Part shown: one piece after another, positions 38,133-63,046 of the stretch
Position numbering within the stretch: the stretch's first letter is position 1
How the letters are laid out: each line of letters begins with the position of its first letter
Source: Alphaproteobacteria bacterium
GTDB taxonomy: Bacteria; Pseudomonadota; Alphaproteobacteria; Rickettsiales; UBA3002
Length of the DNA stretch: 64,000 bases
Direction of reading: 5' to 3'
NCBI GenBank assembly: GCA_035911175.1
Contig: JAMHWA010000018.1
Span: 73,500 to 137,499, forward strand
Notes under the pieces: model-generated
Seen by the model: only the letters and a program-made list of their open reading frames with translations
What the model was told of the DNA's origin: nothing
Database searches by the model: none
Program-made: the position numbers and the translations under genes

Positions 38133-38147
38133 TAACAACCGTCTCTC

Positions 38148-38265
38148 GAAGGGTTTATGATGAGGCGAGTTCTAGGAATGACCGCGCGCAACACCGCAGT
38201 GTAGCAGCGCTACATGAGGATGTGAGCACGGACATGACAACGAAATCGACCATCAGAAATCCTTC
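38148..38265 (+). repeat. Structured intergenic repeat, copy A
   Basis: Core CTAGGAATGACCGCGCGCAACACCGCAGTGTAGCAGCGCTACATGAGGATGTGAGCACGGACATGACAACGAAATCGACCA; outer helix GAAGGGTTTATGATG / CATCAGAAATCCTTC. Confidence 0.75.
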
Positions 38266-38872
38266 GCGCAAAATCGGTTTGCTCGGTGGCTCCTTCAACC
38301 CCGCCCACGAAGGTCACCTGCACATTTCGCTTGAAGCCTTGAAGCGTTTGCAGCTCGATGAAATCTGGTGGCTGGTTTCGCCCAAAAACCCACTCAAGAA
38401 AGCCGATGATTTGGCCGATTATACCCTGCGCCTCACCTTCGCGCGCGGGCTTGCCAATCACCCGCGCATCCGCGTGCTGGATGTCGAGCAGCGCGAGGGG
38501 CTTTACTACACCATCGACAGCATCCGTTTTTTGCAATCGCACCACCGTGATTGCAGCTTTGTGTGGCTCATGGGGGCGGATAATCTTGCTGGCTTTCATC
38601 GCTGGCGTAACTGGCGCGAGATTGCTTCGCGGCTGCCCATCGCCGTGCTCGACCGCGCACCCTATGGCATCAAGGCGTTGCACGCGCGCTTTGCAACTGC
38701 CTATGTGCACCACCGCCTGAGATCCGCCGAGGCTGCGCGTTTGGCGGATGCTGCAGCGCCGCAATGGGTCTATCTGTGCATCCCCCGACACCCACTCAGC
38801 GCCACCCTGTTGCGAAAAACGCTTGGAAGAAATGCTTTTTTGCGCCATACTGCGCCCGATAAAACCTCTTAA
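38234..38872 (+). CDS. nadD: Nicotinate-nucleotide adenylyltransferase
   Basis: IGLLGGSFNPAHEGH motif. Start uncertain: GTG 38222 or ATG 38234, both inside repeat copy A. Confidence 0.85.
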   Translation: MTTKSTIRNPSRKIGLLGGSFNPAHEGHLHISLEALKRLQLDEIWWLVSPKNPLKKADDLADYTLRLTFARGLANHPRIRVLDVEQREGLYYTIDSIRFLQSHHRDCSFVWLMGADNLAGFHRWRNWREIASRLPIAVLDRAPYGIKALHARFATAYVHHRLRSAEAARLADAAAPQWVYLCIPRHPLSATLLRKTLGRNAFLRHTAPDKTS

Positions 38873-38974
38873 GGAGTAACGGCTATTCCACCGCGCACCA
38901 CTGCTAAAAAGCCTGCTAGCTCTAGCAAAGCTACCTCGAAAAAAACCACTGCACCGAAATCGGTAGCAGCCAAA

Positions 38975-39469
38975 GTGGCCAAGCCCGCTGCAAAATCCGT
39001 CAAAAAAGCACCTGCTAAAACCACCCCTGCCAAAGCGATGAAGAAAAACGCCGCCGTGAAAGCGCGCGCCAAGGTCGAAAAAACCGTCGCCAAAAAGGCA
39101 GCCGCACCTGCCAAAAAACTCACCCCCGCACAGGCCGCAACCGAAGCCTTGTGCAAACAGATTGTCAAAATTATCGACACCAACAAGGGCGAGGAAATTA
39201 CCACCCTCAACCTACGCGACAAATGCAGCTTCGCGGATTTCATGATTGTGGCCAGCGGCCGCGCCCCACGCCATGTGAGTGCACTGGCAGATTATGTGGC
39301 CGATATGCTCAAAAAACAAGGCACGCCCCCCCTTTCCATCGAGGGCAAAGAAACCGGCGATTGGGTGCTGATCGACGCGGGCGATATCGTCGTTCACATC
39401 TTCCGCCCCGAAGTGCGCCAGTTCTACAACATCGAAAAAATGTGGGCGATGCCCATGGTGACCGCTTAA
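38975..39469 (+). CDS. rsfS: Ribosome silencing factor RsfS with Ala/Lys/Pro-rich N-terminal extension
   Basis: C-terminal core DFMIVASGRAPRHVSALADYV...WVLIDAGDIVVHIF. The true start may lie upstream, since the frame is open back to the nadD stop. Confidence 0.8.
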   Translation: MAKPAAKSVKKAPAKTTPAKAMKKNAAVKARAKVEKTVAKKAAAPAKKLTPAQAATEALCKQIVKIIDTNKGEEITTLNLRDKCSFADFMIVASGRAPRHVSALADYVADMLKKQGTPPLSIEGKETGDWVLIDAGDIVVHIFRPEVRQFYNIEKMWAMPMVTA

Positions 39470-39476
39470 GGCCACC

Positions 39477-39941
39477 GTGCACATCACCATCGCTGCTGTT
39501 GGCAAAGCCAAGCACAAGCCCGAAGCGGAACTGATTGCCCACTACCTGAAGCAAACGCGGTGGGACATCGCCATCAAAGAAATCCCCGATGCCCCAAGCA
39601 ACATGACGGCGGATGCGCGGCGCGCGCGCGAGGCCGAAGGCTTCCAAAAACTCCTCACCCCGCAAACCCGTTTATTCGTGATGGATTCCACGGGCAAATC
39701 CCTCACCAGCCCCCAATTCGCCAAGCTGATTCAGGATGCTCAGAAAAACGCGACTAAACATGTAATGTTTGCCATCGGTGGGCAAGATGGGCTGGATATA
39801 TCCCTCATCAAGGCCGCGCACACCACCATCGCTTTCGGCGCCGCCACATGGCCACACCAGCTGCTGCGCGCCATGCTGATGGAACAAATCTACCGCGCCT
39901 ACACCATTACCATCGGCCATCCCTATCATGTCGGCCACTAG
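39477..39941 (+). CDS. rlmH: 23S rRNA (pseudouridine1915-N3)-methyltransferase
   Basis: SPOUT fold, C-terminal [27 protein letters not shown]..GHPYH. Confidence 0.9.
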   Translation: [154 protein letters not shown]

Positions 39942-40072
39942 TCTTTATTTGCTCCGAACATCGGCATACTGCCTAGTTCTTCGCGCAGCTTCGCTGGCTC
40001 ATGGCTGACGCGGTTTGCTAACCGCGTACGTTTACTACTTGCACGTCCAGTGCGCACTGCTAAAACCACCTC

Positions 40073-41620
40073 ATGAGCACACCAAAACCTGTCATGTTAT
40101 GCATCCTCGATGGCTGGGGCGAAAGCGCCGAGCGCGAGCACAACGCCATTGCCCAAGCACACACGCCGAACTTCGACGCCATGCGTGCCACCTATCCCTT
40201 CGGCACCATCAGCGCGAGCGAGCTGGATGTGGGCTTGCCCACTGGCCAAATGGGCAATTCCGAAGTCGGCCACATGAACATCGGCGCGGGCCGCGTGGTG
40301 ATGCAGGAACTGCCGCGCATCGATGCTGCGATTGCCGATGGCACGCTTGCCAACAATACTGCACTTCTCAACTACATTGCCGCACTCAAACAATCGGGCG
40401 GCACCTGCCATTTGCTCGGCCTACTTTCCGATGGCGGCGTCCATTCACACATGAACCACATGGCGGCACTCGCCAACGCGGTGGCGGCCAGCGGCGTTCC
40501 CGTCGCCGTGCATGCATTCCTCGATGGGCGCGACACTTCACCCAAAAGTGCACTTGGTTTTGCTGCACAATTCGAGGCTGCCATTGCTGCACAACAACTG
40601 GTTTCCATCGCCACCATCAGCGGCCGTTACTACGCTATGGATCGCGACAAGCGCTGGGATCGCGTAAGCTTGGCGTATGAAGCATTGCTGTACGCCCAAG
40701 GCAACAAAGCACCGAACGCCGCTGCCGCCATCACCATGTCGTATGACGCCGACAAATCCGACGAGTTCGTCATGCCCACCATCATCAATCGCTACGAGGG
40801 CATGAAAGACGGCGACGGCATCCTCATGGCCAATTTCCGTGCTGACCGCGCGCGCGAAATCCTGCATGCGCTCATCGATCCCAATTTCAACGAGTTTGCA
40901 CGCGAGCGCACCGTGCGCTTTGCCGCCACCCTCGGCGTGGTGGAATATAGCGAGAAGCTGAACCCGCTCATCCCCGCCATGTTCCCTGCACAAACGCTGG
41001 TGAATAATTTGGGCGAGCTGGTGGCGAATGCTGGCATGAAACAACTGCGCATTGCCGAAACCGAAAAATACGCCCACGTCACCTTCTTCTTCAACGGTGG
41101 CCGCGAGGAGCCCTTCGCAGGCGAGGATCGCATTCTCGTCCCCTCCCCCAAAGTCGCGACGTATGATTTACAGCCAGAAATGTCTGCGCCCGAAGTGACC
41201 GATAAACTGGTCGAGGCGATTGGCAGCGGCAAATATGATTTGATTGTGGTGAACTACGCGAACACCGACATGGTCGGCCACTCGGGTGATTTGGCCGCCG
41301 CGATGAAAGCGGTGGAGGCAGTGGATGCCTCATTGGGTCGCCTCAAAACCGCCATCGATGCAGCAGGCGGCGCCATGCTCATCACCGCCGATCATGGCAA
41401 TGCCGAATGTTTGCACGACGATGAAACGGGCCAAGCACACACCGCGCACACGCTCAATTTCGTTCCATGCATCCTTGTGGGCGAGGCCTATAAAAACACG
41501 CCAAAGAATCTTGGCCAAGGCATCCTTGCCGATATTGCGCCCACCCTGTGCGCCATGCTTGGCATCACCCCACCGCCAGAGATGACTGGCCGCAATTTGC
41601 TTGCCCATGCGCGCGCGTAG
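40073..41620 (+). CDS. gpmI: 2,3-bisphosphoglycerate-independent phosphoglycerate mutase
   Basis: ILDGWG, MGNSEVGHMNIGAGR, ITADHGNAE motifs. Confidence 0.95.
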   Translation: MSTPKPVMLCILDGWGESAEREHNAIAQAHTPNFDAMRATYPFGTISASELDVGLPTGQMGNSEVGHMNIGAGRVVMQELPRIDAAIADGTLANNTALLNYIAALKQSGGTCHLLGLLSDGGVHSHMNHMAALANAVAASGVPVAVHAFLDGRDTSPKSALGFAAQFEAAIAAQQLVSIATISGRYYAMDRDKRWDRVSLAYEALLYAQGNKAPNAAAAITMSYDADKSDEFVMPTIINRYEGMKDGDGILMANFRADRAREILHALIDPNFNEFARERTVRFAATLGVVEYSEKLNPLIPAMFPAQTLVNNLGELVANAGMKQLRIAETEKYAHVTFFFNGGREEPFAGEDRILVPSPKVATYDLQPEMSAPEVTDKLVEAIGSGKYDLIVVNYANTDMVGHSGDLAAAMKAVEAVDASLGRLKTAIDAAGGAMLITADHGNAECLHDDETGQAHTAHTLNFVPCILVGEAYKNTPKNLGQGILADIAPTLCAMLGITPPPEMTGRNLLAHARA

Positions 41621-42755
41621 CTTGCTCATGGTGGTGGCGATGTGGGCAAGCATTGCCCACGCCCAAGCGCCGCAGCAAAAGCTCGATTCAACACTCGAGA
41701 ACCTTGCCAAAAGCAAAGAGAACGAAGCCGCCATCCGCCGTCGTTTGGCCGAAACAGAGCGCGAGCTTGAAGCGATGCGCGAGCGCGCGGCAACCCTTGC
41801 CGAGCAATTGCAAAAGACCGAACGGCGGGTGGATAGCGAAGAAGACGCGCTGGCCAAGGTGAATGCTGAATATGCCGAGAAGCGCCGCGAGTTCGAGCGC
41901 CGCAAGCATGATTATGCAGTGACGGTTGTCACCCTGCTGCGCATGCGCAACATGCCCACCACCGCACTTTTCTCGTCGAGCGAGGATACGCAAACCATGC
42001 TGCGCACCGCCAGCGTGCTTGAAAAAACCAACGAGGCCGTCGCCGCAAAGGCAGCCCGTTTACGTACCGACATGACACAAATGAAGGCGCTACAAACCTC
42101 CGCAAAAACGCGTGATGCGCGCACCAAAGCCGAAAAAGCGAAGTTGGCGGATGAGCAAAAGAAACTCGAACGCGAACTCAACGCACGGCAAAAACTGCAA
42201 GCACGCCTGAGTGCCGACCAGATCCGTGAAGCCGCCAAAGTGTCGGAGCTCTCACTCGAATCCAAATCACTGCAAGAGTTGATTGCCAAGCTTGATGCCA
42301 ATCAGAAAGAAAAAGCCAAAGACAAATCCGCGCCGAAGCAAAACGCCAAGCTGCGAAGCTTCGATGGAAAAAAAGGGAGCGCGCGCGCGCCTGTCTCGGG
42401 CGATGTTATCCACCGCTTCGGTGACAAACAGAACGATAACGGCACCTATCGCGGCATGGTATTCAAAGCACGCGCAGGCGCCACTGTCGTCGCCCCGTTC
42501 GATGGTGAAGTCGTGTTCACTGGGCCCTTCCGCGATTATGGCAACATGGTGCTCATCAAACACAAGAACGGCTTTATTTCGCTCATTGCTGGCTTGGGCA
42601 AAGTCAATACCAGCCTCAACCAAGCCGCCATTCGCGGCGAGCCAATCGGCACCATGCCACAAAACGGCAAAACCGAGGCCTATGTGGAATTACGCGATAG
42701 CAGTGCCAAGCCTATTGACCCCGCCAACTGGTTCGCTAATGTCGTTGGTAATTAA
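41607..42755 (+). CDS. EnvC-like murein hydrolase activator (coiled coil + M23/LytM domain)
   Basis: Signal peptide, long coiled coil, C-terminal GMVFKARAGATVVAPFDGEVVF...GNMVLIKH. Confidence 0.8.
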   Translation: MRARSLLMVVAMWASIAHAQAPQQKLDSTLENLAKSKENEAAIRRRLAETERELEAMRERAATLAEQLQKTERRVDSEEDALAKVNAEYAEKRREFERRKHDYAVTVVTLLRMRNMPTTALFSSSEDTQTMLRTASVLEKTNEAVAAKAARLRTDMTQMKALQTSAKTRDARTKAEKAKLADEQKKLERELNARQKLQARLSADQIREAAKVSELSLESKSLQELIAKLDANQKEKAKDKSAPKQNAKLRSFDGKKGSARAPVSGDVIHRFGDKQNDNGTYRGMVFKARAGATVVAPFDGEVVFTGPFRDYGNMVLIKHKNGFISLIAGLGKVNTSLNQAAIRGEPIGTMPQNGKTEAYVELRDSSAKPIDPANWFANVVGN

Positions 42756-42821
42756 ATGCTACAACTTGTAGCATCTACAGTAACACATTATGGCGGATGA
42801 AGCTCGCCGCAATGAAGTGGC

Positions 42822-42862
42822 GAAAGCGCAGTGTAGATTTACTACATGAGCATTTCGACGAA
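42822..42862 (+). repeat. Structured intergenic repeat, degenerate copy E (core only)
   Basis: GAAAGCGCAGTGTAGATTTACTACATGAGCATTTCGACGAA matches the family core, with apical stem TGTAG/CTACA. A perfect 9-bp hairpin ATGCTACAA-C-TTGTAGCAT lies just upstream (42756-42774). Confidence 0.45.
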
Positions 42863-42939
42863 GCTTTATTGCAAGTAGGTTCGCCGACAGAATGAAGTTA
42901 ATGGAGATGCCTTTAAAAACACTTTCGCACGGATTGTTC

Positions 42940-44331
42940 ATGCGCTTTGCCACCCGCTTTCTTGCTGCCCTTTTCCTCACCACCACCCTTGCCAACGCAG
43001 CCACCCCTGCCGCGGCACCCAAGGCCAGCAGCAGCTCTACGTATGAACTACTCAACCTGTTTGGTGAAGTGTTCGACCGCGTGCGCAGCGATTATGTCGA
43101 GCCCGTAGCGGATGACAAACTCATCGAGTCGGCCCTAAACGGCATGCTCACCTCGCTCGACCCGCACTCGGGCTACATGAACGAAAAAAGCTTCGGCGAC
43201 ATGAAAATCCAAACCAAGGGCGAATTTGGCGGCCTTGGTATCGAAGTGACCATGGAGAATGGCCTCGTTAAAGTCGTCTCGCCGATTGACGATACACCTG
43301 CTGCCAAAGCTGGCATCAAACCCGGAGACTACGTCAGCGAGATCGACGGCACCGCCGTGATGGGTCTCACGTTGCAGGATGCTGTCGATAAAATGCGGGG
43401 TGCGGTGGGCACAAGCGTCAAACTTACAGTTCTACGTGAGGGCGCGAAAGAGCCACTGAACATTACCATTAAGCGCGACCTCATCAAAATTCAATCCGTA
43501 CGCAGCCGCTCGGAAGACGATGTCGCCTACCTGCGCATCACCTCCTTCTCGGAAGCGACATCCGAAACCATGAAGGCAGCCTTCGAGAAAGAGAAAAAAG
43601 CCATTGGCGGTAAACTCAAAGGCGTCGTGCTCGATTTGCGTAACAACCCAGGTGGTTTGCTCGACCAAGCGGTGGATGTGTCGGATGCTTTCCTCGACCA
43701 TGGCGAAATTGTTTCTACCCGCTCGCGCAAACCCGAGGAATCGCGCCGCTATAGCGCCAGAAAAGGCGATATCGCGAACGGTTTGCCTATTGTTGTCCTG
43801 ATTAACGAAGGCTCCGCCTCTGCATCCGAAATTGTGGCGGGCGCCTTGAAGGACCACAAACGCGGCGTGGTCATGGGCACCAAATCGTTCGGTAAAGGCT
43901 CCGTCCAAACCGTGATTCCGATTGAAGATCATGGCGCCATCCGCCTCACCACCGCACGCTACTACACCCCATCGGGCGTCTCGATTCAGGCCAAAGGCAT
44001 CGTGCCCGATATTGTGGTCGAGCAGGCGAAGGTGGAAACCATCAAACCGACTGCCAATTTCTCGGAAATGAACCTGCCTGGTCACTTGGATAACGATCAG
44101 AACAAGGACGAGGGCGCGGCACCTGCCGCCGCAAATGATAACAAAAAGGACAGCAAGAAGGATGCCGCCAAGGATGATAAGAAAGACGGCAAAAAGGATA
44201 AGAGCGCCGATACTGACTATCAGCTCAGCCGCGCACTCGATCTGATTCGTGCTGTATCCATCTATCAGCGCAACGAAAATGCCGCCGCAGAGCCAGCCCC
44301 TGCAGCAGCAAAACCTGCTGCAAAAAAATGA
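42940..44331 (+). CDS. ctpA: Carboxy-terminal processing protease (S41)
   Basis: Signal peptide MRFATRFLAALFLTTTLANA, PDZ, GSASASEI and KGSVQT motifs; alternative upstream ATG at 42892. Confidence 0.9.
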   Translation: MRFATRFLAALFLTTTLANAATPAAAPKASSSSTYELLNLFGEVFDRVRSDYVEPVADDKLIESALNGMLTSLDPHSGYMNEKSFGDMKIQTKGEFGGLGIEVTMENGLVKVVSPIDDTPAAKAGIKPGDYVSEIDGTAVMGLTLQDAVDKMRGAVGTSVKLTVLREGAKEPLNITIKRDLIKIQSVRSRSEDDVAYLRITSFSEATSETMKAAFEKEKKAIGGKLKGVVLDLRNNPGGLLDQAVDVSDAFLDHGEIVSTRSRKPEESRRYSARKGDIANGLPIVVLINEGSASASEIVAGALKDHKRGVVMGTKSFGKGSVQTVIPIEDHGAIRLTTARYYTPSGVSIQAKGIVPDIVVEQAKVETIKPTANFSEMNLPGHLDNDQNKDEGAAPAAANDNKKDSKKDAAKDDKKDGKKDKSADTDYQLSRALDLIRAVSIYQRNENAAAEPAPAAAKPAAKK

Positions 44332-44339
44332 GGTAGATC

Positions 44340-45857
44340 ATGGCAGGCGGTCGCAAAATCAGCCTCCCACATGTCAGTAGCTTTGCCCTATGGGCGACCA
44401 TTACTGGCTTGCTTGCGCTTGGCATGATGACCACCCTCGTCGACTTCATCGGGCTTTCCGATCACGAATCAAAACGCGCGAACGAGGCAAAGCAGCGCTT
44501 CGTTATTAATGCCGTTACGGGCGAGGTCATGCTCAGCAGCGACCCCCATGCTGTCGAAGAAACGACATTCGATGTTGCCACCCCTGAGGCCGAGCCGCCT
44601 GCTGCTGCTGAAGCAGAAGCACCTGCGCACGCTGAAGCTGCGCCCGAACCCGCCCCCGCTGAAGGCGAGCACAGTGCGACTGAAGCACCGACTGAGCCTA
44701 CGAGCGAACCAACCACAAGCACCGAACCCGCGAGCGACCATTCCGCTGCCGCGCCAGAAACAGCCACCCCTGAAGCCGCGGCACCCGAGGCGGCACCAGC
44801 ACCTGCACCAGAGCCCGTCATCGCCAATGCCCCCAGCTTGCGCACCGCCCCCATCGAGGCATCCCTCACTGCACCCGTACACACTAAAAACAGCCTTGTC
44901 CCCGCTCCTGCGCGTGAGGTGAGCGAAACACTCCATGGCCTCACCCTGCCCAAGCGTGGCGATAACGATCTGCTCCCATCCAAACTTTATGCCCGCCCCT
45001 TCGCGCGCAAAGAAGGGCAGGCCGCACTCAGCTTTGTCGTCATGGAAGCTGGGCTTGATACGCAATCCATTGGCCTCATCATGAATTTGCCGCCGGAAGT
45101 CACCGTTGCCTATTCACCCTATAGCCGCAAATCCACCAGCTACAGCGAAAATCTCCGTAGCCTCGGCCACGAAGTATGGACCATGCTTCCTGCCATGAAC
45201 GACAACTATCCTTCCGATGACCCAGGCCCGATGGGCATCATCAGCAAAATGCCGCCCGAGGAAACATTGCGCCGCACGCAAGAAGTGCTGGCCGCCATTG
45301 CTGGCAGCGTGGGCCTCATCACCGCACCAAACGAGGCGGTAACGACCTCGGCAGAAAATATTGCGCCCGTTCTTGGCGAAATCAGCAAGCGCGGGTTGCT
45401 CATGCTTTCCACGCACCCCACACGCACCCTCAGCCAAATGACCACCAATCGCGGCATATTGGAGATGATGCGCCGCGCCGATTTAGTGCTCGACCCCGCA
45501 CCCAACGAAGCACAAATCCGCAGCAAATTGGCAGGCATTCTTGCCGCAGCAAAAGAAAAAGGTGACTATGTGGTCGTCCTTTCTGCGCGCCCACAAAGCC
45601 TACAATTACTGGCCGAATGGCTGAAGGCCAACCCACTCGATGAATCGATTGCGCTGGCGCCCCTTTCAGCCATGTTCGTGCCCAAGGAAGCGCCTCAGCC
45701 GAAGGCCGAGGAAGCCGCCGCCGCTGAAGGCGAACACGCTGCCCCGCCCAAGAAGGAAAAGAAAAAAGAGAAACCCGCCGAGAAAAAGCAAAAGCCCCTC
45801 CCGCAGGATAAATACCTCAAGCCTGCAGCGGCCGAAAAATCAAGCGGCGGGCACTAA
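44340..45857 (+). CDS. Divergent polysaccharide deacetylase (YibQ-like) with a long Pro/Ala/Glu-rich linker
   Basis: N-terminal TM, ~130-aa low-complexity region, then a YibQ-like core (LSFVVMEAGLD...VTVAYSPYS...), Lys-rich tail. Confidence 0.65.
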   Translation: MAGGRKISLPHVSSFALWATITGLLALGMMTTLVDFIGLSDHESKRANEAKQRFVINAVTGEVMLSSDPHAVEETTFDVATPEAEPPAAAEAEAPAHAEAAPEPAPAEGEHSATEAPTEPTSEPTTSTEPASDHSAAAPETATPEAAAPEAAPAPAPEPVIANAPSLRTAPIEASLTAPVHTKNSLVPAPAREVSETLHGLTLPKRGDNDLLPSKLYARPFARKEGQAALSFVVMEAGLDTQSIGLIMNLPPEVTVAYSPYSRKSTSYSENLRSLGHEVWTMLPAMNDNYPSDDPGPMGIISKMPPEETLRRTQEVLAAIAGSVGLITAPNEAVTTSAENIAPVLGEISKRGLLMLSTHPTRTLSQMTTNRGILEMMRRADLVLDPAPNEAQIRSKLAGILAAAKEKGDYVVVLSARPQSLQLLAEWLKANPLDESIALAPLSAMFVPKEAPQPKAEEAAAAEGEHAAPPKKEKKKEKPAEKKQKPLPQDKYLKPAAAEKSSGGH

Positions 45858-46339
45858 TGAGCGCCTATAGCAACCTACCTTACCGCGACGGCGTGGGCAT
45901 CATGCTTCTCAACGCACAGGGCAAGGTCTTCGTCGCCAAGCGGCTCGACACGCTGGCGGAGGCATGGCAAATGCCGCAGGGAGGCATTGATGCGGACGAG
46001 GAGCCACGGGCAGCAGCTCTGCGGGAACTCACCGAAGAAACTGGCGTACCCGCCGATAACGTCACCATCCTTGCCGAATCCGCTGATTGGCACCGCTATG
46101 ATTTACCCGACGATTTAATCCCCATCATCTGGAAAGGCCAGTATCGCGGCCAGCAGCAAAAATGGTTTGTCATGCGGCTTGATGGCGATGATTCCCTCAT
46201 CAACATCCATGCCGATGACCACCCCGAATTCAGCGAATGGAAATGGATCCCCATGCACGAATTGCCCGAGGTGATTGTGCCCTTTAAGCGGGAATTATAC
46301 GCGACGCTGGTGGCGGAGTTTTCTAAATTTTCTTCCTAA
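45857..46339 (+). CDS. rppH: RNA pyrophosphohydrolase (Nudix)
   Basis: YRDGVGIMLLN...WQMPQGGIDADEEPRAAALRELTEETG Nudix box. Confidence 0.9.
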   Translation: MSAYSNLPYRDGVGIMLLNAQGKVFVAKRLDTLAEAWQMPQGGIDADEEPRAAALRELTEETGVPADNVTILAESADWHRYDLPDDLIPIIWKGQYRGQQQKWFVMRLDGDDSLINIHADDHPEFSEWKWIPMHELPEVIVPFKRELYATLVAEFSKFSS

Positions 46340-46351
46340 ACACACCCCATC

Positions 46352-46472
46352 TTGCTGCGTCAAAATAGTTGAGATGCTAGGAGTGGCGGCGCACAGAAGC
46401 GCAGTGTAGCAGCGCCACATGAGCATTCGAGCACCGACACGACAACGCAGATCAGCTGTTTTCACGCAGCAA
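46352..46472 (+). repeat. Structured intergenic repeat, copy B
   Basis: Core GCTAGGAGTGGCGGCGCACAGAAGCGCAGTGTAGCAGCGCCACATGAGCATTCGAGCACCGACACGACAACGCAGATCAG; outer helix TTGCTGCGTCAAAA / TTTTCACGCAGCAA. Confidence 0.8.
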
Positions 46473-46473
46473 A

Positions 46474-47379
46474 CTACGCGCGAATCATCGTACTCGCACC
46501 ACCTGCGGTAAACACTTCAATCAGCAACACATGCGGAATGCGCCCATCAAGAATGTGGGCTTGCTTCACGCCGCCGCGCAGGGCATTCACGCAGGTTTCC
46601 ACTTTCGGAATCATGCCGCCGGTAATGGTTCCATCGGCCAGCAGCGCATCAATTTCTTCGGCATCAATCTCGCTGATGAGTTGTTTCTCTTTCGTCAGAA
46701 TCCCTGCCACATCGGTCAGCATCATCAGCTTATGAGCCTTAAGCGCGCTCGCAATCGCGCCCGCAGCCGTATCGGCGTTGATGTTATAGGTCTCGCCGTT
46801 CGGGCCCATGCCAATCGGTGCAATCACAGGAATCATGCCGCTGGCCACAATATTCTGAATCGCTTGCGGATTGACCTTCACGGGCTCGCCCACAAAGCCC
46901 AGATCCAGCACGCGCTCGATATTGCTATCGGGGTCCTTCTTCGTGCGCTTGAGTTGCTGCGCTTCAATCAGGTTGCCGTCCTTGCCCGAAATACCAATCG
47001 CCGTGCCGCCCATTTGGTTGATGGCGGTGACGATTTGCTTGTTGATGGAGCCTGAGAGCACCATCTCCACAATCTCGACCGCCGCTTGATCCGTCACCCG
47101 CAAGCCATCGATGAATTCGGATTGGATTTTAAGACGCTCTAGCATCGCGCCAATTTGCGGGCCGCCGCCATGCACCACCACAGGGTTGATGCCAATGGTT
47201 TTCAGCATCACAATATCGCGTGCAAAGGTTTCCGCCGTGCGCTCGTCGCCCATGGCGTTGCCGCCGTATTTGATGACAAAGGTTTGCCCTGCAAAACGCT
47301 GAATATAGGGCAGTGCTTCACTTACCGTTTTGGCGGTGCGCAGCAGCAGTTCTTTGGTCTTAATCGTTTTAATTTGCAT
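46474..47379 (-). CDS. argB: Acetylglutamate kinase
   Basis: [19 protein letters not shown] motifs. Confidence 0.95.
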
Positions 47380-47382
47380 GGG

Positions 47383-49736: not shown

Positions 49737-49775
49737 GGATTATATTACCTTCAAAGTTAACAGCTACCATTCACG

Positions 49776-49997
49776 TCATGGTACGGGGTCATCACCGCTA
49801 CCACCCCAAGGGTGACAACGGGCAAGGCGTTTTATGGCAAGCCATGCCCCCTTGCAAGCCCCATGTCGTGTAATCGCTTCTGCCGCATAATGCGAACAGG
49901 TGGGGTTAAAGCGGCAGCTAGCAGGCGTAACTGGTGAGATGGCATATTGGTATACCCGTATCACCCCAAGCATCAGCATTTTAATCACACGCTGCAT
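49776..49997 (-). CDS. yidD: Membrane protein insertion efficiency factor YidD
   Basis: YQYAISP...[11 protein letters not shown]...CHPWG. Confidence 0.9.
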
Positions 49998-53111: not shown

Positions 53112-53112
53112 T

Positions 53113-53970: not shown

Positions 53971-53986
53971 GGTGCGCTTGCCTTAC

Positions 53987-54751
53987 CTAGAATTGTTTGC
54001 GTTTAAAATCGATAACACAGGCTGCCAGCAGCAACGGAATAAATACACCCGCTTGCATGAGCACCAAGGCCGCATCTTCATACGAGCGCGCACCGTAAAT
54101 TAGCCAGTTACTTTTAGCGAAAAGGTCAAGCCGTGGCACAACCACTGCAATCCCATCCATGAGCCATTGGGCACCCACATTGATGTGCTGCTCCTTGAAT
54201 ACATTGCGCACACTGGTCGTCGCCAGAAAGAATCCCATCATGCGCGACAAGCTATAAATCGCAAGCGAGGCCAGCACCGTCCCAACCCCACTTTTGATCG
54301 TCAGCGAGGCAAACAACGCCACCGAGACCACCAACCACGATTCCAGCAACAAACTGACCGACCACAACCAGAAGCCTGTCTGGTTAAGGATACCAATAAC
54401 CCCTATCAACGCTACCGTTGGCAACACGAGGAATGTAGCCACGGCTGCGAATCCAAGCCAGTAGGAAAGTACGAGGCTTGTGCGCGAGATGGGGCGCGAC
54501 AGCAAGACATCGATTTCCTTCGCATCGAACGCATTGCGCATATGAAAGCCAATAAAGACAATAATGCCAATCATGATAATGACGCGCGCACTCGCCGCAG
54601 TGAAGGCAATCGCCATTTGCTGCGTTTCCAGCATCGCTGTCGATCCAAGGACATGAGAAATATAGGCGGCCGCAAGAATCCCAAGCAACAAACCAAGAAA
54701 TAATCGGTCACGTGTCGCCGTCATCAACACATAACGAATGCTGCTTAACAT
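53987..54751 (-). CDS. Polytopic membrane protein (ABC-2 permease-like)
   Basis: About 6 TM segments; no adjacent ATPase. Confidence 0.55.
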   Translation of the reverse strand: MLSSIRYVLMTATRDRLFLGLLLGILAAAYISHVLGSTAMLETQQMAIAFTAASARVIIMIGIIVFIGFHMRNAFDAKEIDVLLSRPISRTSLVLSYWLGFAAVATFLVLPTVALIGVIGILNQTGFWLWSVSLLLESWLVVSVALFASLTIKSGVGTVLASLAIYSLSRMMGFFLATTSVRNVFKEQHINVGAQWLMDGIAVVVPRLDLFAKSNWLIYGARSYEDAALVLMQAGVFIPLLLAACVIDFKRKQF

Positions 54752-54776
54752 GGCTGCTTAGAGCTCCTTCAGGCGA

Positions 54777-56630: not shown

Positions 56631-56745
56631 TCGTGATCCCCATCAGGAATGATTTCACCCTAGACTAGTAACACACCACTAATAGTCGACAAGATGTTTG
56701 TGATAGGATGTGAGTAACCTCAAACCATTCATCCGCAACGCCAAA

Positions 56746-57522
56746 TCAATTGCCAATAAATCCGTAGAGTTGCCAGAATTGATTCGCCACATTTGGCCAC
56801 ACCACACATAGTAAAAGCGATGCCGCAAGCGCAGGGCCAAAGGGGAATAGTTCGCCGCGGCCAATCATCCGCCAGCCAAGGCCAAACACTACACCAAGCA
56901 CGCCCGAGAAAAATAAGAACGGCACAAAGCTTGCGCCGCTCGCAAGCCAAATGCCCGCACCAAATAATAACTTCACATCGCCGAGGCCAAGACCATCCTT
57001 ATTGCGCAAATAGAGGAAGCCATATTTGAGGATGAGGCCAATCGTAAGGCCAATGAAACCTGCTACAATCACATCCGTGAAATCAGTGCCAATCGCGTAA
57101 TGATACAGCACGCCAAAAACAATCATCGCAATCTGCACTTCATCGAGGATGATGTAATGCTCTAGGTCCGTGATGATAATGGCGACGATGCACCACCATA
57201 ACCCCGTCACTGCAAATGCCTCGAGGGTGATGCCATAACGATACGTCGCCACCAGCGCTCCCAATGCACAGGCAAGTTCCGTCAGCGGATAGCGCGCGCT
57301 GATTTTTGTTTTGCAGTGCCGACATTTCCCGCGCGAAAAAACCCACGAGAGGACAGGAAATAAATCGCGCACCGCAAGTGTAGTACCACAACTGGGGCAG
57401 CGCGATCGCGTCATGCCAATCGTTTCGTCACGCGGCAGCCGATAAGTCACCAGCGTCAGGAATGAGCCAATGCACGCGCCCACAAACGCAATAAATCCCA
57501 AAATCATCCAGCTATGTTCCAT
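56746..57522 (-). CDS. pilD: Prepilin peptidase (A24 family)
   Basis: IGSFLTLVTYRLP, CPSCG...CRHCK zinc motif, two Asp-containing TM regions; ATG at 57522 is preferred over the track start at 57585. Confidence 0.85.
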   Translation of the reverse strand: MEHSWMILGFIAFVGACIGSFLTLVTYRLPRDETIGMTRSRCPSCGTTLAVRDLFPVLSWVFSRGKCRHCKTKISARYPLTELACALGALVATYRYGITLEAFAVTGLWWCIVAIIITDLEHYIILDEVQIAMIVFGVLYHYAIGTDFTDVIVAGFIGLTIGLILKYGFLYLRNKDGLGLGDVKLLFGAGIWLASGASFVPFLFFSGVLGVVFGLGWRMIGRGELFPFGPALAASLLLCVVWPNVANQFWQLYGFIGN

Positions 57523-57696
57523 AAAATCAATCGCTTGCGGTTCTTGGTTGCGCTCGCTGCGGCTTCGTGGCAAAAACAGGCGCACCTACTATATATAGTT
57601 TTGCTTGGCAGCCTTCGCTGCAAAGCGACACTAAATACCGTGGTCACGTTAGCGCCAAGCCAACGCAGAATGCAAAACAAAAACTCGACCGAGCCC

Positions 57697-58134
57697 ATGA
57701 CCGTGAATAAAACCATCGCCATCGCCAACGACCATGCTGGGCTTATGCTCAAGCAACTCCTGTTGGCCGAAATCGAAGCGCTTGGTTTCACCGCGCTCGA
57801 CCTAGGAACGAACACGGCGGACTCCGTCGATTACCCTGATTACGGTTACGCCGTCGCCAAAGCAGTGACGGATGGCCGCGCGCAATTTGGCGTTGCCATT
57901 TGCGGTTCAGGTATTGGCATTTCCATCGCGGCGAATCGTGTCGCTGGCGCACGCGCCGCATTGTGCAGCACTGGCCTTGCCGCCGAGCTGAGCCGTCAAC
58001 ATAACGACGCCAACATTCTATGCCTCGGCGCCCGCCTGATTGGTGATGCCGAAGCCAAGGAATGTTTGAAACGTTTTTTGGCCACGCGCTTTGAAGGCGG
58101 GCGGCACGAAAACCGCGTAAAAAAATTAGGATAG
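57697..58134 (+). CDS. rpiB: Ribose-5-phosphate isomerase B
   Basis: IAIANDHAG...CGSGIGISIAANR...RHENRV. Confidence 0.9.
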   Translation: MTVNKTIAIANDHAGLMLKQLLLAEIEALGFTALDLGTNTADSVDYPDYGYAVAKAVTDGRAQFGVAICGSGIGISIAANRVAGARAALCSTGLAAELSRQHNDANILCLGARLIGDAEAKECLKRFLATRFEGGRHENRVKKLG

Positions 58135-58148
58135 TAAGGGAAAACTCA

Positions 58149-58793
58149 ATGTCAGCCACGTTGCTTGATTTCGTAAAGGACGCCTCCCGCCTCGGTAAAA
58201 GCCGCGAGGAAATCAACGCCGTACTCAAAACCGCTGGTTGGCCCGAGGATCAACTTGCCGCATTTTGGAGCAAATATAGCGACGAGCCATTTCCCGTGCC
58301 TGTGCCCAAACCTACAGTCTATGCCTCGCCGCGCCTAACGATGCTCAATCTCTTCTTCTTCATCGTGCTGTACATCACCATCTACTCGGCTCTCTCCATT
58401 CTTTTCACCATCCTTGATTACAATTTGCCAGATGGGCGCGGCCAAATGCGCGGCATCTACTATTCATCGCAACCAATTGCAGATGCCATTCGTGGCTACC
58501 TCGCCGCTATTTTTGTCAGTGCACCGCTGGTTTATTTCACCTCGCGCCAACTTAACAAATCGATGGTGGCTATCGGCCAGTTCATCCACGGCACGCGCCT
58601 CAAGCTCATGAACCTCTCGCTGTTGATTGCCGCGCTCGTCATTTTGTGTAACTTCATCAGCTTCAGCTACTATTTCCTAAGCGGTGAGTTAAGCATTCGC
58701 TTCATACTGAAGGTACTCATACTCACCGCCACCAGCGCTGGGATATATTACTTCTTCAAGCCTGAAATTGCTGCGTTCGAGAAAAAGGCATAA
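58149..58793 (+). CDS. Membrane protein (DUF5671-like)
   Basis: Soluble N-terminal ~50 aa followed by 4 TM segments. Confidence 0.45.
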   Translation: MSATLLDFVKDASRLGKSREEINAVLKTAGWPEDQLAAFWSKYSDEPFPVPVPKPTVYASPRLTMLNLFFFIVLYITIYSALSILFTILDYNLPDGRGQMRGIYYSSQPIADAIRGYLAAIFVSAPLVYFTSRQLNKSMVAIGQFIHGTRLKLMNLSLLIAALVILCNFISFSYYFLSGELSIRFILKVLILTATSAGIYYFFKPEIAAFEKKA

Positions 58794-58796
58794 CCC

Positions 58797-59267
58797 ATGC
58801 AAAAATTCCTACGTATTTTTGCGATTGCCGCGCTGCTAGGGATTGTGGGTTACGCCCTCACCATCACGGGTTCCCCCGCCCACACGCGCATGGTGAACGA
58901 GGATATGGATACGCTGGAAGGACTGGAGCAGCTGCACCGCGCGCTCACGGCGTATCACCAGCAGAATGGTCATGTGCTAACGAGCCTGAACGGCAAAGCG
59001 CTCAACGCTATCAATAGCGGTTCGTACGGCTCCCAAAGCTGTGGCGGATACTACAACAATATCCATTTCAGTGATGAGCAACTCAAACGCTATCACTACA
59101 CGCCTAACGCCACTGGCTACAAGATTTGCACGAACTTCAATACGAATTGGTCAGAGGTTAAGCTGAATCGCTATACTCATGACAATCTTTACAATTGGGC
59201 CGAGAATTTCCAAAAAGGCCAAAATTGCTTTGAACGCACCATCCCAGAATGTAAGAAAAGGAATTAA
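58797..59267 (+). CDS. Hypothetical N-terminally anchored Cys-containing protein
   Basis: ORF track; N-terminal TM; no family recognised. Confidence 0.45.
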
Positions 59268-59302
59268 CCATGACCAACACCGCACGTAAACTCGAGGAAA
59301 CC

Positions 59303-60628
59303 ATGAGCACCACCACCGCCTACTTCACCGCGCCACTGTCGACGACGGATAAAGACATCTTCAACGCCATCCAGAATGAGCTTGGCCGTCAGCAACATCA
59401 GGTGGAGCTGATTGCTTCCGAGAACATCGTATCCAAAGCCGTGATGGATGCGCAAGGCTCCGTGTTCACCAACAAATACGCCGAAGGCTACCCTGGCAAA
59501 CGCTACTACGGCGGCTGTGAGTTTGCTGATGTGGTAGAGCAACTGGCGATTGACCGCGCGAAGAAACTCTTCAACACCAACTATGCCAACGTGCAGCCAA
59601 ACAGCGGCAGCCAAGCCAACCAAGGTGTGTTCAACGCGCTGCTGAAGCCCGGCGATACCATCATGGGTCAATCGCTCGCAGCGGGCGGCCACCTCACCCA
59701 CGGCGCGCCCGTCAACCAGTCGGGCAAATGGTTCAACGCCATCACCTACGGCGTGCGCGAGGACACCCACCTGCTCGATTACGATGCGATTGAAAAGCTT
59801 GCATTGGAGCACAAACCCAAACTCATCATCGCGGGCTTCTCGGCTTATCCACGTGTGGTTGATTGGGCGCGCTTCCGCCAGATTGCCGATAAAGTCGGCG
59901 CATATTTCATGGTCGATATGGCGCATATCGCAGGCCTCGTTGCTGGTGGTTCCTACCCCTCGCCACTGCCGCACGCGCATGTTGTCACCACCACCACCCA
60001 CAAAACCCTGCGCGGGCCACGCGGCGGCATGATTCTTTCCAACGTGCCTGAACTCGTGGTCGGCAAAACGCCGATGGGCAAAGACCAAACCCTCGAAATG
60101 GCCATCAACAGCAGCATTTTCCCTGGCATCCAAGGTGGGCCGCTGGTGCATGTCATGGCAGGTAAAGCCGTGGCCTATGGTGAAGCGCTGCAACCAGCCT
60201 TCAAGCAGTATGCGCAAGCCGTGGTGGATAACGCCCGTGCACTCGCAGCAGTGCTCGTCAAACGTGGCCTGAACATTGTGAGTGGCGGTACGGATAATCA
60301 CCTCGTGCTGGTCGACCTACGCCCCAAAAACGTGACGGGTAAAGCGGCGGAAGCATCGCTCGAGCGTGCTGGCCTCACCTGCAACAAAAACGCCATTCCG
60401 TTCGATCCTGCATCGCCGTTCGTCACCAGCGGCGTGCGTTTGGGAACCCCTGCGGGCACCACGCGTGGATTCGGCATCAAAGAGTTCGAAGAAATCGGCA
60501 ACCTGATTGGCGATGTACTCGATGGCCTTTCCAAAAACCCCGAAGCGCCCGAAGCGAACGCGGCGGTGGAAGCTGCCACCAAAGCGAAGGTGCGTGCGCT
60601 GACGGATAGATTCCCCATCTATAGCTAG
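59303..60628 (+). CDS. glyA: Serine hydroxymethyltransferase
   Basis: [24 protein letters not shown]-lysine motif. ATG at 59303 fits the conserved N-terminus; the track start is 59270. Confidence 0.95.
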
Positions 60629-60636
60629 GAGATTTT

Positions 60637-61080
60637 GTGCGCTGTCCTTTCTGTAACCATGAGGATACTCAGGTAAAAGATTCTCGCCCCAGCGAGGACG
60701 GCTCCTCCATCCGCCGCCGCCGGTTCTGCCCTGCGTGCAATTCGCGCTTCACCACGTTCGAACGTGTGCAACTGCGCGAGCTGACGGTGGTGAAAAGCAA
60801 TAACGAGCGCCGCTTGTTCGACCGCGATAAAATCGCCCGCTCCATGGCCATTGCCCTGCGCAAGCGCCCTGTGGATGCGGATTCGGTGGAAATGGCCATC
60901 AACCGCATTGTGCAAAAACTCGAATCCGAAGGCGAGTCCGATATCCCCACCCGCCGCATCGGCGCACTGGTCATGGATGAACTGAAAAAACTCGATGCCG
61001 TCGCCTATATCCGCTACGCCAGCGTCTACCGCGATTTCGGCACAGCGGATGATTTCGAGAAGTTTGTCGATAAGCTGTAA
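60637..61080 (+). CDS. nrdR: Transcriptional repressor NrdR
   Basis: MRCPFCNH...[17 protein letters not shown] zinc ribbon + ATP-cone. Confidence 0.95.
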
Positions 61081-62162
61081 TGCTCACCGATTCCCACTTC
61101 CTCCTCCACGCCACGCGCCTTGCTAGCCGCGGCTTTGGACGCACATGGCCGAACCCCAGCGTCGGCTGCATTATTGTCAAAAACAACCATATCATCGGCC
61201 TTGGTCGCACGGCGGATGGTGGCCGCCCACATGCGGAAACCGAAGCGCTGAAGCAAGCTGGCGATGCCGCACACGGCGCCACGGCGTATGTATCGCTCGA
61301 ACCCTGCGCGCACCACGGAAAAACCCCACCCTGCGCTCAGGCGCTTATCGATGCAGGCATCGCCCGCGTGGTGATTGCGTGCGAGGACACCGACCCCCGC
61401 GTCAGCGGCAAAGGCGCCGCCATGCTGCGCGCAGCGGGCATTGACGTCATCATCAAACCCACCGCCGAAGCCATTCGCCTCAACAAAGGCTTCTTCCGCC
61501 GCATCGCGCAAAACCTGCCCCATGTCGCCCTGAAACTCGCCACCAGCCAAGATAACTTCATGGCACGGGGTGATGGCGGCGGCCAATGGCTCACGGGTGA
61601 ATTTGCGCGCCAGCACGGCCACCTGTTGCGCGGGCAGTTCGATTGCATCGTCACGGGCATCGGCACTGTGCTCGCGGATGATCCTCTTCTCACCGTGCGC
61701 CCGCCCATTGCCCCACACCCCAACCTTGTGCGCGTGGTGGCGGATAGGCAGTTGCGCCTGCCGCTTAGCAGCAAGCTCGTGAAAACTGCCAACCAGTTCC
61801 CGCTCTGGGTCATCACCCATGCCGAAGCGGTGGAATTAAACGCCAGCCACGCCACCGATCTGCGCGAGGCAGGGGTGAAATTTCTGGTGGTGGAGGATAG
61901 CGCCCTTGCCCCACGCACCATCCTTGCCGCACTCGCCACCGAGGGCATCACCCGCGCTTTTATCGAGGCTGGGCCTACGCTTTCCGCCAGTTTCCTTGCT
62001 TCAGGCCTCGTCGAAACCCTGCACCATTACTGCGCCCCCATCACGCTCGGAAATGCTGGTAAATCGCCGATAGATGGACTAAATACCACCCTCTCTAGTG
62101 CCACCCGTGTTGATGCCCGCACGCTAGGTCAGGATTCATATGAACGGTATGAGCTCTCCTAG
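61080..62162 (+). CDS. ribD: Bifunctional riboflavin biosynthesis deaminase/reductase
   Basis: HAETEAL, TLEPCAHHGKTPPC CDA motif, C-terminal reductase domain. Confidence 0.9.
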   Translation: MLTDSHFLLHATRLASRGFGRTWPNPSVGCIIVKNNHIIGLGRTADGGRPHAETEALKQAGDAAHGATAYVSLEPCAHHGKTPPCAQALIDAGIARVVIACEDTDPRVSGKGAAMLRAAGIDVIIKPTAEAIRLNKGFFRRIAQNLPHVALKLATSQDNFMARGDGGGQWLTGEFARQHGHLLRGQFDCIVTGIGTVLADDPLLTVRPPIAPHPNLVRVVADRQLRLPLSSKLVKTANQFPLWVITHAEAVELNASHATDLREAGVKFLVVEDSALAPRTILAALATEGITRAFIEAGPTLSASFLASGLVETLHHYCAPITLGNAGKSPIDGLNTTLSSATRVDARTLGQDSYERYELS

Positions 62163-62174
62163 ACACCAGCAAGA

Positions 62175-62291
62175 AAGCGGTTTATATGCGGCGAGTGCTA
62201 GGAGTCGGCGCGCACAGAAGCGCAAGTGTAGCAGCGCTACATGAGCATTCGAGCACGCCGATGACAACGCAATCGACCATAGAAACCGCTT
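62175..62291 (+). repeat. Structured intergenic repeat, copy C
   Basis: Core GCTAGGAGTCGGCGCGCACAGAAGCGCAAGTGTAGCAGCGCTACATGAGCATTCGAGCACGCCGATGACAACGCAATCGACCA; outer helix AAGCGGTTTATATG / CATAGAAACCGCTT. Confidence 0.8.
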
Positions 62292-62298
62292 GGTAGTC

Positions 62299-62910
62299 AT
62301 GTTCACAGGATTAGTAAAAACCCAAGGCACCATCCGCCGCGTCGACCAACGTGGCGATTGCATGATCACGATTGCGATGAAGGATCCCTTTGCTATCGAG
62401 GTGGGTGATTCCATTTGTGTGAACGGCATTTGCCTCACGGCCGTAAAGGTAAGCGATAACGAGTTCAAAGTGTCCCTCTCCGCCGAAACCATGAACCGCA
62501 CCACCGCGAAGGATTGGGCCGTGGGCACAGTGGTGAATCTCGAACCATCGTTGAGTGTGGGCGATGCCATGGGCGGCCATTTTGTGAGTGGGCATGTCGA
62601 TGGTTTGGCGCGGGTTGTCGCTGCCGAAAAAAGCGGTGATTCCACCATCTGGGAATTCGAAGTGCCTCCCGCACTCGCTCGCTTCATTGCCCCCAAAGGC
62701 TCCGTCACCCTCGATGGTGTTTCGCTCACTGTGAACAACGTGAAGGACACACGCGGCGTTGGCGGCACCACCGTCACCATCTTCAGCGTCAACATCATTC
62801 CCCACACCGCCAAGGTAACAAGCTTTGGCAGCTTGAAGGTGGGTGATAGCGTCAACCTCGAAGTCGATATGCTCGCGCGCTATGTGGCGCGGCTCAAGGA
62901 AGCGCCATGA
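62299..62910 (+). CDS. ribE: Riboflavin synthase
   Basis: MFTGLVKTQGTI...GDSICVNGICLT and the second repeat GSVTLDGVSLTV. Confidence 0.9.
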   Translation: MFTGLVKTQGTIRRVDQRGDCMITIAMKDPFAIEVGDSICVNGICLTAVKVSDNEFKVSLSAETMNRTTAKDWAVGTVVNLEPSLSVGDAMGGHFVSGHVDGLARVVAAEKSGDSTIWEFEVPPALARFIAPKGSVTLDGVSLTVNNVKDTRGVGGTTVTIFSVNIIPHTAKVTSFGSLKVGDSVNLEVDMLARYVARLKEAP

Positions 62911-62927
62911 TGAGAACGACAGGGTGT

Positions 62928-63046
62928 AAAACTTCTTTGTGTGAGGTGAGCGCTAGGAGCGCCCGCGCACAAGGAGTGAGTGTACACTTAGTACATGACC
63001 GACTGAGCACGGACGCGACGCCGCGATCGACCACAGAAAGAGTTTT
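62928..63046 (+). repeat. Structured intergenic repeat, copy D
   Basis: Core GCTAGGAGCGCCCGCGCACAAGGAGTGAGTGTACACTTAGTACATGACCGACTGAGCACGGACGCGACGCCGCGATCGACCA; outer helix AAAACTTCTTTGTGTG / CCACAGAAAGAGTTTT. Confidence 0.75.

Follow-up and report, generated by a model that had tools for sequence, protein, structure and literature searches.

A probable foldback repeat of MITE type at gene junctions of a Rickettsiales genome, with a hairpin that co-varies between copies

The stretch of DNA analysed here (the window; 64,000 nt, G+C 54%) comprises positions 73,500 to 137,499 of contig JAMHWA010000018.1 (GenBank assembly GCA_035911175.1), from an alphaproteobacterium assigned to the Rickettsiales (UBA3002). 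Among the genes of this window, including ribD-ribE-ribBA and proA-nadD, lie five copies (A-E) of a repeated element of ~130-150 nt, which holds no open reading frame (ORF) of its own and forms one long imperfect hairpin. An earlier note, made from the sequence alone, had described four of these copies and the remains of a fifth. A covariance model (R1) was trained on 76 diverse copies of the repeat family and run over the 64 kb, matching all five copies and placing every one of them on the + strand. The features of the window, together with the inserted blocks as bounded at their junctions, are as follows:

Copy A, + strand: covariance-model match at 38130-38284, 115 bits; insert 38130-38266, 137 nt, at the proA/nadD junction
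Copy B, + strand: covariance-model match at 46346-46476, 83 bits; insert 46342-46470, between the convergent stops TAA 46337-46339 and CTA 46474-46476
Copy C, + strand: covariance-model match at 62156-62307, 99 bits; insert 62160-62296, at the ribD/ribE junction
Copy D, + strand: covariance-model match at 62911-63063, 108 bits; insert 62911-63046, 136 nt, at the ribE/ribBA junction
Copy E, + strand: covariance-model match at 42763-42916, 38.9 bits (E=2e-7); degenerate and full-length, hairpin at ~42781-42900, between an M23 peptidase gene and ctpA
62907-62910, + strand: left ATGA of the target-site duplication of copy D, retaining the ribE stop codon
63047-63050, + strand: right ATGA of the same duplication, retaining the ribBA start codon

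Copies A-D were thus recovered where they had first been placed. Copy E is degenerate, as proposed, but extends over the full length of the element rather than consisting of a core only. The pattern AGTGTAN7YACATGAN6GAGCAC matches A, B, C and D exclusively, with 0 matches expected and none in 100 shuffles. Public genome stretches holding copies or relatives' genes are designated by L numbers (e.g. L083, L194); copy B belongs to a shorter-arm subtype like that of L091, ~11 nt being missing symmetrically from both arms. Folding z-scores range from -3.6 to -6.0 (-3.65 for copy E, -6.0 for copy B), and none of 200 shuffles was equally stable. The three nested, co-varying helices of the earlier description were reproduced, all being sections of the one hairpin and the outer one co-varying strongly; the C.A mismatch of the middle helix is conserved, and a second, previously unmentioned mismatch is present in A, B and D. 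All window copies are sense to their upstream gene and lie within operons, with no consistent promoter or terminator found in them. The view that every copy is intergenic does not hold for A, which abuts the proA stop and gives the likely nadD start, or for C, which gives the ribD stop. No reading frame is consistently open across the family, the best being open in 22 of the 76 copies.

That copies A, C, D and E were inserted is evident from relatives in which their sites are empty. At the C and D sites, ribD, ribE and ribBA abut or overlap (ATGA or GTGA) and are element-free in six relatives with RibE 63-87% identical to that of the window. The empty sites of copy C are those of L119, L120, L121, L123, L124 and L125; L122 (RibE 97%) carries a copy C identical to that of the window and lacks copy D, which is absent throughout L119-L125. 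The empty D sites hold a single ATGA or GTGA stop/start overlap, and since the duplicated ATGA of the window copies this ancestral overlap, both the ribE stop and the ribBA start are retained. At the A site, empty in L195 (NadD 96%) and in L196/L197 (NadD 86%), proA and nadD overlap (…GCGGGGTAAACGCAAAATCGG…), and the window has 137 additional bases; the E site is likewise empty in the 86% NadD relative (L196 4860-5000). Because no palindrome is present at the empty sites and the outer helix falls wholly within the inserted block, this helix belongs to the insert. Target-site duplications and empty sites, both of which the earlier note had suggested looking for, are found at D and at A, C, D and E, respectively.

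Several insertions have remodelled the ends of neighbouring genes. Copy A replaces the ancestral overlap GGGG-TAAA-CGCAAAATC: the proA stop TGA (38130-38132) forms its first three bases as bounded, and the native nadD start is destroyed, NadD of the relatives beginning MRGKRK. The only in-frame nadD start in the window is ATG 38234, within copy A, yielding MTTKSTIRNPSRK…, and this ATG is likely the new start of the gene. A TAG lies at either end of copy C, at 62160-62162 (serving as the ribD stop) and at 62294-62296, while AAAC borders copy B at 46338-46341 and 46471-46474. The 3' arms of copy D and of the L083 copy terminate at the ribBA ATG. In other genomes the element resides in-frame inside QueG (L007) or stands in place of the tail of an Ile-tRNA-synthetase-like protein, which is a class I tRNA synthetase (L009), behaviour resembling that of the Rickettsia palindromic elements (RPE repeats).

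A same-site, same-subtype copy of A is present in L194 and a same-site copy of D in L083. Each of the two pairs shares subtype characters and junction structure, making common descent from one insertion the simplest reading. Independent insertion into a single intergenic region also occurs, as indicated by L018 7329-7475 and L063 7090-7239, which precede the same orthologous gene in opposite orientations.

Other palindromic or inserted sequences were observed close to these sites. In L083 (6437-7156, - strand), RibE contains an in-frame insertion of ~45 aa (GFGIRDSGKQESTPISHPLASEVPTLGMLHETRASLNPESRILNPS) and is ~36 aa longer than RibE of the window; this insertion may represent another gene-resident repeat. 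The nadD-rsfS spacer of L196 (~960-1080) holds a different palindromic element of ~120 nt, with ends TTTAGAAAGATACGC…GCGTATCTTTCTAAA and apex TGTACATCAAGTACA, which is only loosely family-like, is missed by the covariance model and is absent from the window spacer. Upstream of copy E, a short perfect palindrome (ATGCTACAACTTGTAGCAT, 42754-42780) directly follows the stop of the M23 peptidase gene, and a differing palindrome, CGCTTTGATCAAAGCG, occupies the same place in L196 (~4907-4926).

Traces of transposition come from the gammaproteobacterial (gamma-type) copies, which have fixed terminal inverted repeats (TIRs), GGGCRCCTCTAAAAAT ... ATTTTTAGAGGTGCCC, of ~16-38 nt, the arms remaining similar over ~38 nt and further. 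Perfect 4-bp direct repeats flank 16 of 41 such copies, and in 29 of the 41 at least three of the four bases match, while with shuffled partners the average was 1.9 and the highest value 6; direct repeats of 5 bp were seen around none of 38. The tetramers so duplicated vary and are rich in A and T (TTAA, TAAA, TATA, GATA and others). Copies of Holosporaceae type end in TAGACTTCTTTCGAAAC and are always bracketed by TA, and the termini of the window copies have diverged and are unlike one another. A miniature transposable element with inverted repeats (MITE) of classical form had been discounted by the earlier note, a judgement that the fixed TIRs and 4-bp target-site duplications (TSDs) of the gammaproteobacterial copies, together with the ATGA flanking D, overturn. 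A Tn3-derived inverted-repeat miniature element (TIME), a type with ~38-bp inverted repeats and a 5-bp TSD, was considered on account of the tip GGGCACCTC, which presumably resembles the inverted repeat of Tn21, and rejected, the TSD being 4 bp instead of 5 and 5-mer repeats numbering 0/38.

The core of the repeat was found in at least 118 stretches of a species-representative genome collection, and hence well beyond the present genome. Among the matches listed, carriers are mostly Gammaproteobacteria (Porticoccaceae, Cellvibrionales, Thiotrichaceae, Chromatiales, Arenicellales and many metagenome-assembled genomes, MAGs), with alphaproteobacterial carriers in the Holosporales, the Midichloriaceae and 'Rickettsiales' MAGs, and single matches in a Nitrotoga MAG (labelled beta-proteobacterial), a Chthoniobacterales MAG (Verrucomicrobia) and a MAG labelled Maribacter (L107). 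Cultured carriers include Porticoccus litoralis DSM 25064, Pseudomaricurvus alkylphenolicus KCTC 32386 and Legionella bozemanae ATCC 33217. In 0.68 Mb of these loci the covariance model gave 145 matches with E <= 0.001, ~20 of which are weaker opposite-strand matches to the same copies. Neighbouring genes are unrelated and include cox genes, lpdA, hpt/lysA and priA. Bursts in copy number are seen in some host-associated genomes: WLWT01, a 7-Mb gammaproteobacterial MAG, has up to 3 copies per 8 kb, and in JAIRZD01, a Holosporaceae MAG, a copy is present at many contig ends, the signature of a near-identical high-copy repeat. The termini of the Legionella copy (L106 6106-6259) are of Holosporales type, not gamma-type, suggesting cross-class transfer, perhaps among co-residents of amoebae.

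Searches for a known identity gave no named family. With Rfam 15 at the gathering threshold, the window and nine loci that cover all subtypes gave tRNAs only, and nothing above noise came from E-value mode on 62100-63100, in keeping with the earlier failure to recognise an Rfam family. Searches with blastn gave no match for gamma- and window-type copies among PLSDB plasmids, nor for a gamma-type copy (word size 11) among 5,426 complete Escherichia coli genomes, and the core pattern had no match in viral contigs. In the literature, no description of the family was found under the core strings, under MITE/Holosporales/Legionella or under foldback-MITE topics. MITEs of Thiomargarita are associated with 10-bp or TATAG direct repeats, and a relation to the window repeat is not shown (PMC4853749).

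On this evidence, the five elements are probably copies of an unnamed, non-autonomous, foldback MITE-like family of ~130-150 nt without coding capacity. The repeat is best placed as an unnamed member of the class of foldback MITEs that comprises ERIC, RPE and Correia-like elements, outside every family that could be tested.

The structure of the element has been maintained to a degree that calls for separate consideration. Since a transposon's inverted repeats pair with each other from the outset, covariation alone would not prove selection. Over its entire length the element forms a single long imperfect palindrome, built about a core of ~65 nt that is highly conserved, and covariation was measured on the 76-copy alignment, using as controls shuffles and partners slid by 1-3 columns. 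Standard pairs occupy 92% of pair cells against 34-47% with partners slid, both sides change at 31 of 39 pairs, double-change cells number 384 against ~100 in either control, and the covariation score is 0.44, compared with 0.08-0.10 (slid) and 0.15 (shuffles). The apical pair is composed of UA in 50 copies, CG in 12 and GC in 10. Among ten alpha-type copies, 23 of 39 pairs carry double changes, the outer helix being the most variable part. Mismatches, bulges, internal loops and one G.U pair (invariant in 76/76) are conserved from alpha- to gamma-type copies.

Recent and long-resident copies differ in how they change. In 13 recent copies of WLWT01, compared with their own consensus, double changes number 1, single changes that preserve the pair as G.U 13, single changes that break it 13 and doubly broken pairs 1, whereas copies at the same site in different genomes changed as follows:

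A and L194 (proA-nadD, NadD 72%): 7 double changes keeping the pair, 1 change kept as G.U, 0 single broken, 1 double broken
D and L083 (ribE-ribBA, RibE 69%): 5 double kept, 2 G.U kept, 0 single broken, 1 double broken
L067 and L104 (syntenic gamma loci): 6 double kept, 4 G.U kept, 2 single broken, 0 double broken
L059 and L110 (upstream of the same orthologous gene, gamma): 4 double kept, 2 G.U kept, 0 broken, 0 double broken

Random substitution would give 0.5-0.8 doubles in such same-site pairs, with a maximum of 4 in 5000 simulations. The one-sided decay of recent copies, set against compensatory change at shared sites, indicates that the structure is constrained and not merely inherited. 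Selection on structure, as first proposed, is accordingly upheld, the helices co-varying far above controls and the same-site copies changing by compensatory pairs. The earlier note had reckoned that fixed terminal repeats with TSDs and no covariation would speak against its proposal; such termini and duplications are present in the gamma-type copies, and the covariation is nevertheless supported.

Several observations weigh against a simple MITE. A clean TSD occurs in the window at D alone, termini and apparent TSD length vary by lineage (4 bp in gamma-type copies, TA in Holosporaceae), and the centre is better conserved than the termini, the opposite of what an ordinary MITE displays. No autonomous element sharing the termini was found by scans for solo TIRs and multi-copy ORFs over ~0.9 Mb of loci. 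The four same-site pairs sum to 22 double-kept, 9 G.U-kept, 2 single-broken and 2 double-broken changes, and over the 76 copies G.T pairs exceed A.C pairs by 288 to 62 (104 to 59 where G.U is not the column consensus); neither the compensatory changes nor the G.T excess is predicted for an inert relic, and both point to constraint. The forward strand is the better folder in 72 of the 76 copies (mean -58.0 vs -48.5 kcal/mol), while in the four window copies A-D the strands fold equally well. Orientation, by contrast, counts in favour of the mobile account. By gene calls that are rough (greedy ORFs), 20 copies are co-oriented and 32 anti-oriented with flanking ORFs in all tandem contexts (gamma 13 vs 25, p=0.07; alpha 4 vs 6). 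Against GC skew, used as a proxy for replication direction, orientation is biased: of 61 gamma loci, 43 have the forward strand on the C-rich one (p=0.002), as do 11 of the 13 alpha loci (p=0.02), with no bias in the Holosporaceae MAG. Skew is negative throughout the + strand of the window, and the position of all five copies on that strand is consistent with the bias. Provided that the leading strand is the G-rich one, the better-folding strand would keep off the lagging-strand template, and the bias would agree with selection against extrusion of the hairpin at the fork as well as with an insertion mechanism specific to one orientation.

The constraint could have sources other than the one preferred here. 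A MITE-borne hairpin might act in cis within operon transcripts, as a 3' stabiliser, an RNase III/E site or a mask over cryptic signals such as the conserved AGGAG and ATG, and such a role, itself compatible with a mobile origin, would preserve the structure. It would suit the almost exclusively compensatory or G.U changes of same-site pairs, the G.T excess and better-folding forward strand, the maintenance of mismatches, bulges and the invariant G.U, the sense placement of all five window copies inside operons, and the way in which A gives nadD its start and the 3' arms of D and the L083 copy reach the ribBA ATG. We nonetheless consider it a doubtful account: gene orientation is mixed family-wide and antisense if anything, close relatives without copies have intact compact operons, neighbouring genes are unrelated, both strands of the window copies fold equally, and a simple hairpin role needs no conservation of core sequence. 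Equally tentative is the proposal that the ~65-nt core is a functional folded module, recognised by a conserved protein either in RNA or in single-stranded fork DNA, carried on interchangeable termini and retained once inserted by selection that is linked to replication or acts at the level of the host, e.g. on an RNA hairpin between cistrons. Selection might also be dispensed with, were quasi-palindrome template switching or mismatch correction within the hairpin to copy changes from arm to arm. Quasi-palindrome mutagenesis is known from E. coli; doubles dominate in long-resident copies and singles in recent ones, and the orientation bias against GC skew hints at a link with replication. Such a process should however erase mismatches, while the C.A, the bulges, the internal loops and the 76/76 G.U are conserved from Alpha- to Gammaproteobacteria, which speaks against templated correction between the arms being the only cause; as unpaired core positions are conserved too, we regard this explanation as unlikely.

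The remaining candidates concern the nature of the element itself. Strand-asymmetric folding, the orientation bias and an outer stem that keeps its structure while varying in sequence might recall a derivative of an HUH/Y1 single-strand transposon (REPIN/RAYT or IS200/IS605 PATE-like) whose hairpin is recognised at the fork. HUH elements make no target duplications and use a fixed flanking tetranucleotide, whereas genuine variable 4-bp duplications flank the present copies; moreover, the better-folding strand is on the C-rich strand and not the lagging-strand template, and no RAYT or TnpA was seen, although no systematic search was made, so that this origin is very improbable. A ~90-nt element entering the loops of pre-existing palindromes (e.g. 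terminators), as had been suggested earlier, would explain why the outer helix, then derived from the target, varies in sequence between copies yet stays complementary. It can hardly be sustained, for the empty sites of A, C and D are abutting or overlapping genes without a palindrome, the whole outer helix is absent from them, and the gamma-type copies have one common outer sequence. Just as remote is a riboswitch or trans-acting small RNA gene, despite a conserved structured core and the position of A, C and D upstream of the cofactor genes nadD, ribE and ribBA: other copies lie beside cox genes, lpdA, hpt/lysA and priA, in mixed orientation, the repeat is multi-copy with TSDs, and it is missing upstream of the same genes in close relatives. 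Occurrence in both orientations relative to genes, unrelated neighbours and the lack of a promoter or terminator in the window copies likewise disfavour the dedicated structured RNA that had been entertained from the outset.

Returning to the foldback MITE-like family, its copies would owe their mobility to a DDE-type transposase that acts in trans and makes staggered cuts of 4 bp, and for the Holosporaceae subtype a TA-duplicating IS630-like enzyme may serve. The targets in the lineage of the window were gene junctions that formerly abutted or overlapped, and both reading frames are kept usable there by the duplication of the target (ATGA at D) or by the element, which contributes a stop at C and a start at A. 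Persisting copies could keep their hairpin because selection acts on the folded single strand, in fork DNA and/or in co-transcribed mRNA; such selection would account for the compensatory changes, the conserved mismatches, the one-strand G.T excess and the skew orientation bias.

The filled alleles have also spread laterally. Over most of ribBA the window is 100% identical to L122, but in the 100 nt flanking D to the left and to the right the identity is only 90%; the patches flanking D have 86% and 84% identity to L083 in the window and 74% and 75% in L122. Around site A, identity is 88-91% near the site vs 96-97% deeper in nadD. These local drops at D and A indicate that filled and empty alleles have been exchanged on short recombination patches. 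A recent transposition of D, considered in view of its absence from the 97% relative, was rejected, its flanks being only 90% identical and nearer to L083; judged by those flanks, copy D is an old allele. More generally, filled alleles are old and pass between lineages on such patches.

Should the core prove to be a functional module, it would represent either a cargo-carrying MITE repeatedly domesticated across proteobacterial classes or a new replication-coupled form of hairpin mobility. In any case, the repeat adds a widespread family to the few bacterial foldback repeats (ERIC, RPE, Correia, REPIN) and offers a natural contrast between fresh copies, which decay one-sidedly, and long-resident same-site copies, which change in compensatory pairs. 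With this contrast and the skew bias, it can be tested directly why hairpin repeats are conserved. In practice, the repeat breaks MAG assemblies, leads gene callers to extend RibE and NadD wrongly at the N-terminus, and remodels starts and stops.

Further observations concern the ends and interior of the element. Solo TIRs resolved as truncated copies, diverged relatives or a TIR-only palindrome, the last being a 33-nt perfect palindrome of two Holosporaceae-type termini alone (TAGACTTCTTTCGAAACATTCGAAAGAAGTCTA; L080 2789-2821), which is either an internal-deletion derivative or a footprint. An insertion sequence of the IS630 family (DDE_3, apparently frameshifted) has two copies in WLWT01 (L013 6407-7519 and L052 5883-6995); with TIRs TACTACTTCGGCAAAAGATTACCCGACA and TA flanks, it was rejected as the partner since these TIRs differ from the termini of the repeat, being faintly like its Holosporaceae-type end. 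In some gamma-type copies, extra small hairpin modules, e.g. CGACTGCATGGATGCAGGAGGTAGAACAA… and CAACAGTAGGGACCACGAGGC, are nested at fixed junctions (L005 1812-2026 and 3681-3832; L050, L051, L024, L002, L030, L102), giving a mosaic, BIME-like architecture.

Elsewhere in the window, positions 8812-8861, which contain the 3' half of tRNA-Ile(GAT) (gene 8780-8856) and a few further bases, are repeated exactly at 19903-19952, and between the two repeats G+C drops to 0.43-0.51. The pair looks like the tRNA-derived att repeats of an integrated island of ~11 kb. Low-complexity Lys/Ala-rich (KKPAAKK-like) repeats occur at protein ends at 33269-33338, 38903-38944 and 44287-44341.

Among known systems, several share traits with the window repeat. 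ERIC (enterobacterial repetitive intergenic consensus, also IRU) is a ~127-nt imperfect palindrome found across genera in transcribed operon spacers, in either orientation, with presence/absence polymorphism at orthologous sites and slow, structure-preserving evolution; no transposase is known for it. These traits resemble those described here, but the window repeat is unmatched in E. coli, its hosts are marine and host-associated Alpha- and Gammaproteobacteria, and its gamma-type copies have a 4-bp TSD where ERIC has TA. RPE repeats are likewise palindromic selfish sequences of ~100-150 nt in host-associated alphaproteobacterial genomes and share the habit of in-frame residence, seen here in QueG (L007), in the IleRS-like tail (L009) and at the N-terminus of NadD in the window. 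The present family differs in spanning several proteobacterial classes and in having clear TIRs and TSDs in some lineages; the peptides and sequence of RPE are presumably unrelated to it. Correia elements (CREE/NEMIS) are MITEs of ~100-150 bp with TIRs, co-transcribed and serving as RNA nuclease substrates, with no autonomous partner known, although they are restricted to Neisseria, duplicate TA and combine conserved 26-bp TIRs with a variable interior, while in the window repeat the interior is the most conserved part. Similar to REPINs and the REP-RAYT system are the hairpin doublets of ~100 nt, the retention of the hairpin during within-genome evolution and a strand-specific biology; REPINs, in contrast to the conserved centre and 4-bp TSD found here, have conserved ends, a variable centre, no TSD and a single-copy RAYT. 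Finally, MITEs derived from insertion sequences (IS630/Tc1-like with TA; IS5-like with 3-4 bp) agree in size, TIRs and TSD, bursts and the one-sided decay of recent copies, the window repeat being set apart by a palindrome that runs its full length, a class-spanning core, lineage-varying termini and no parental insertion sequence identified.

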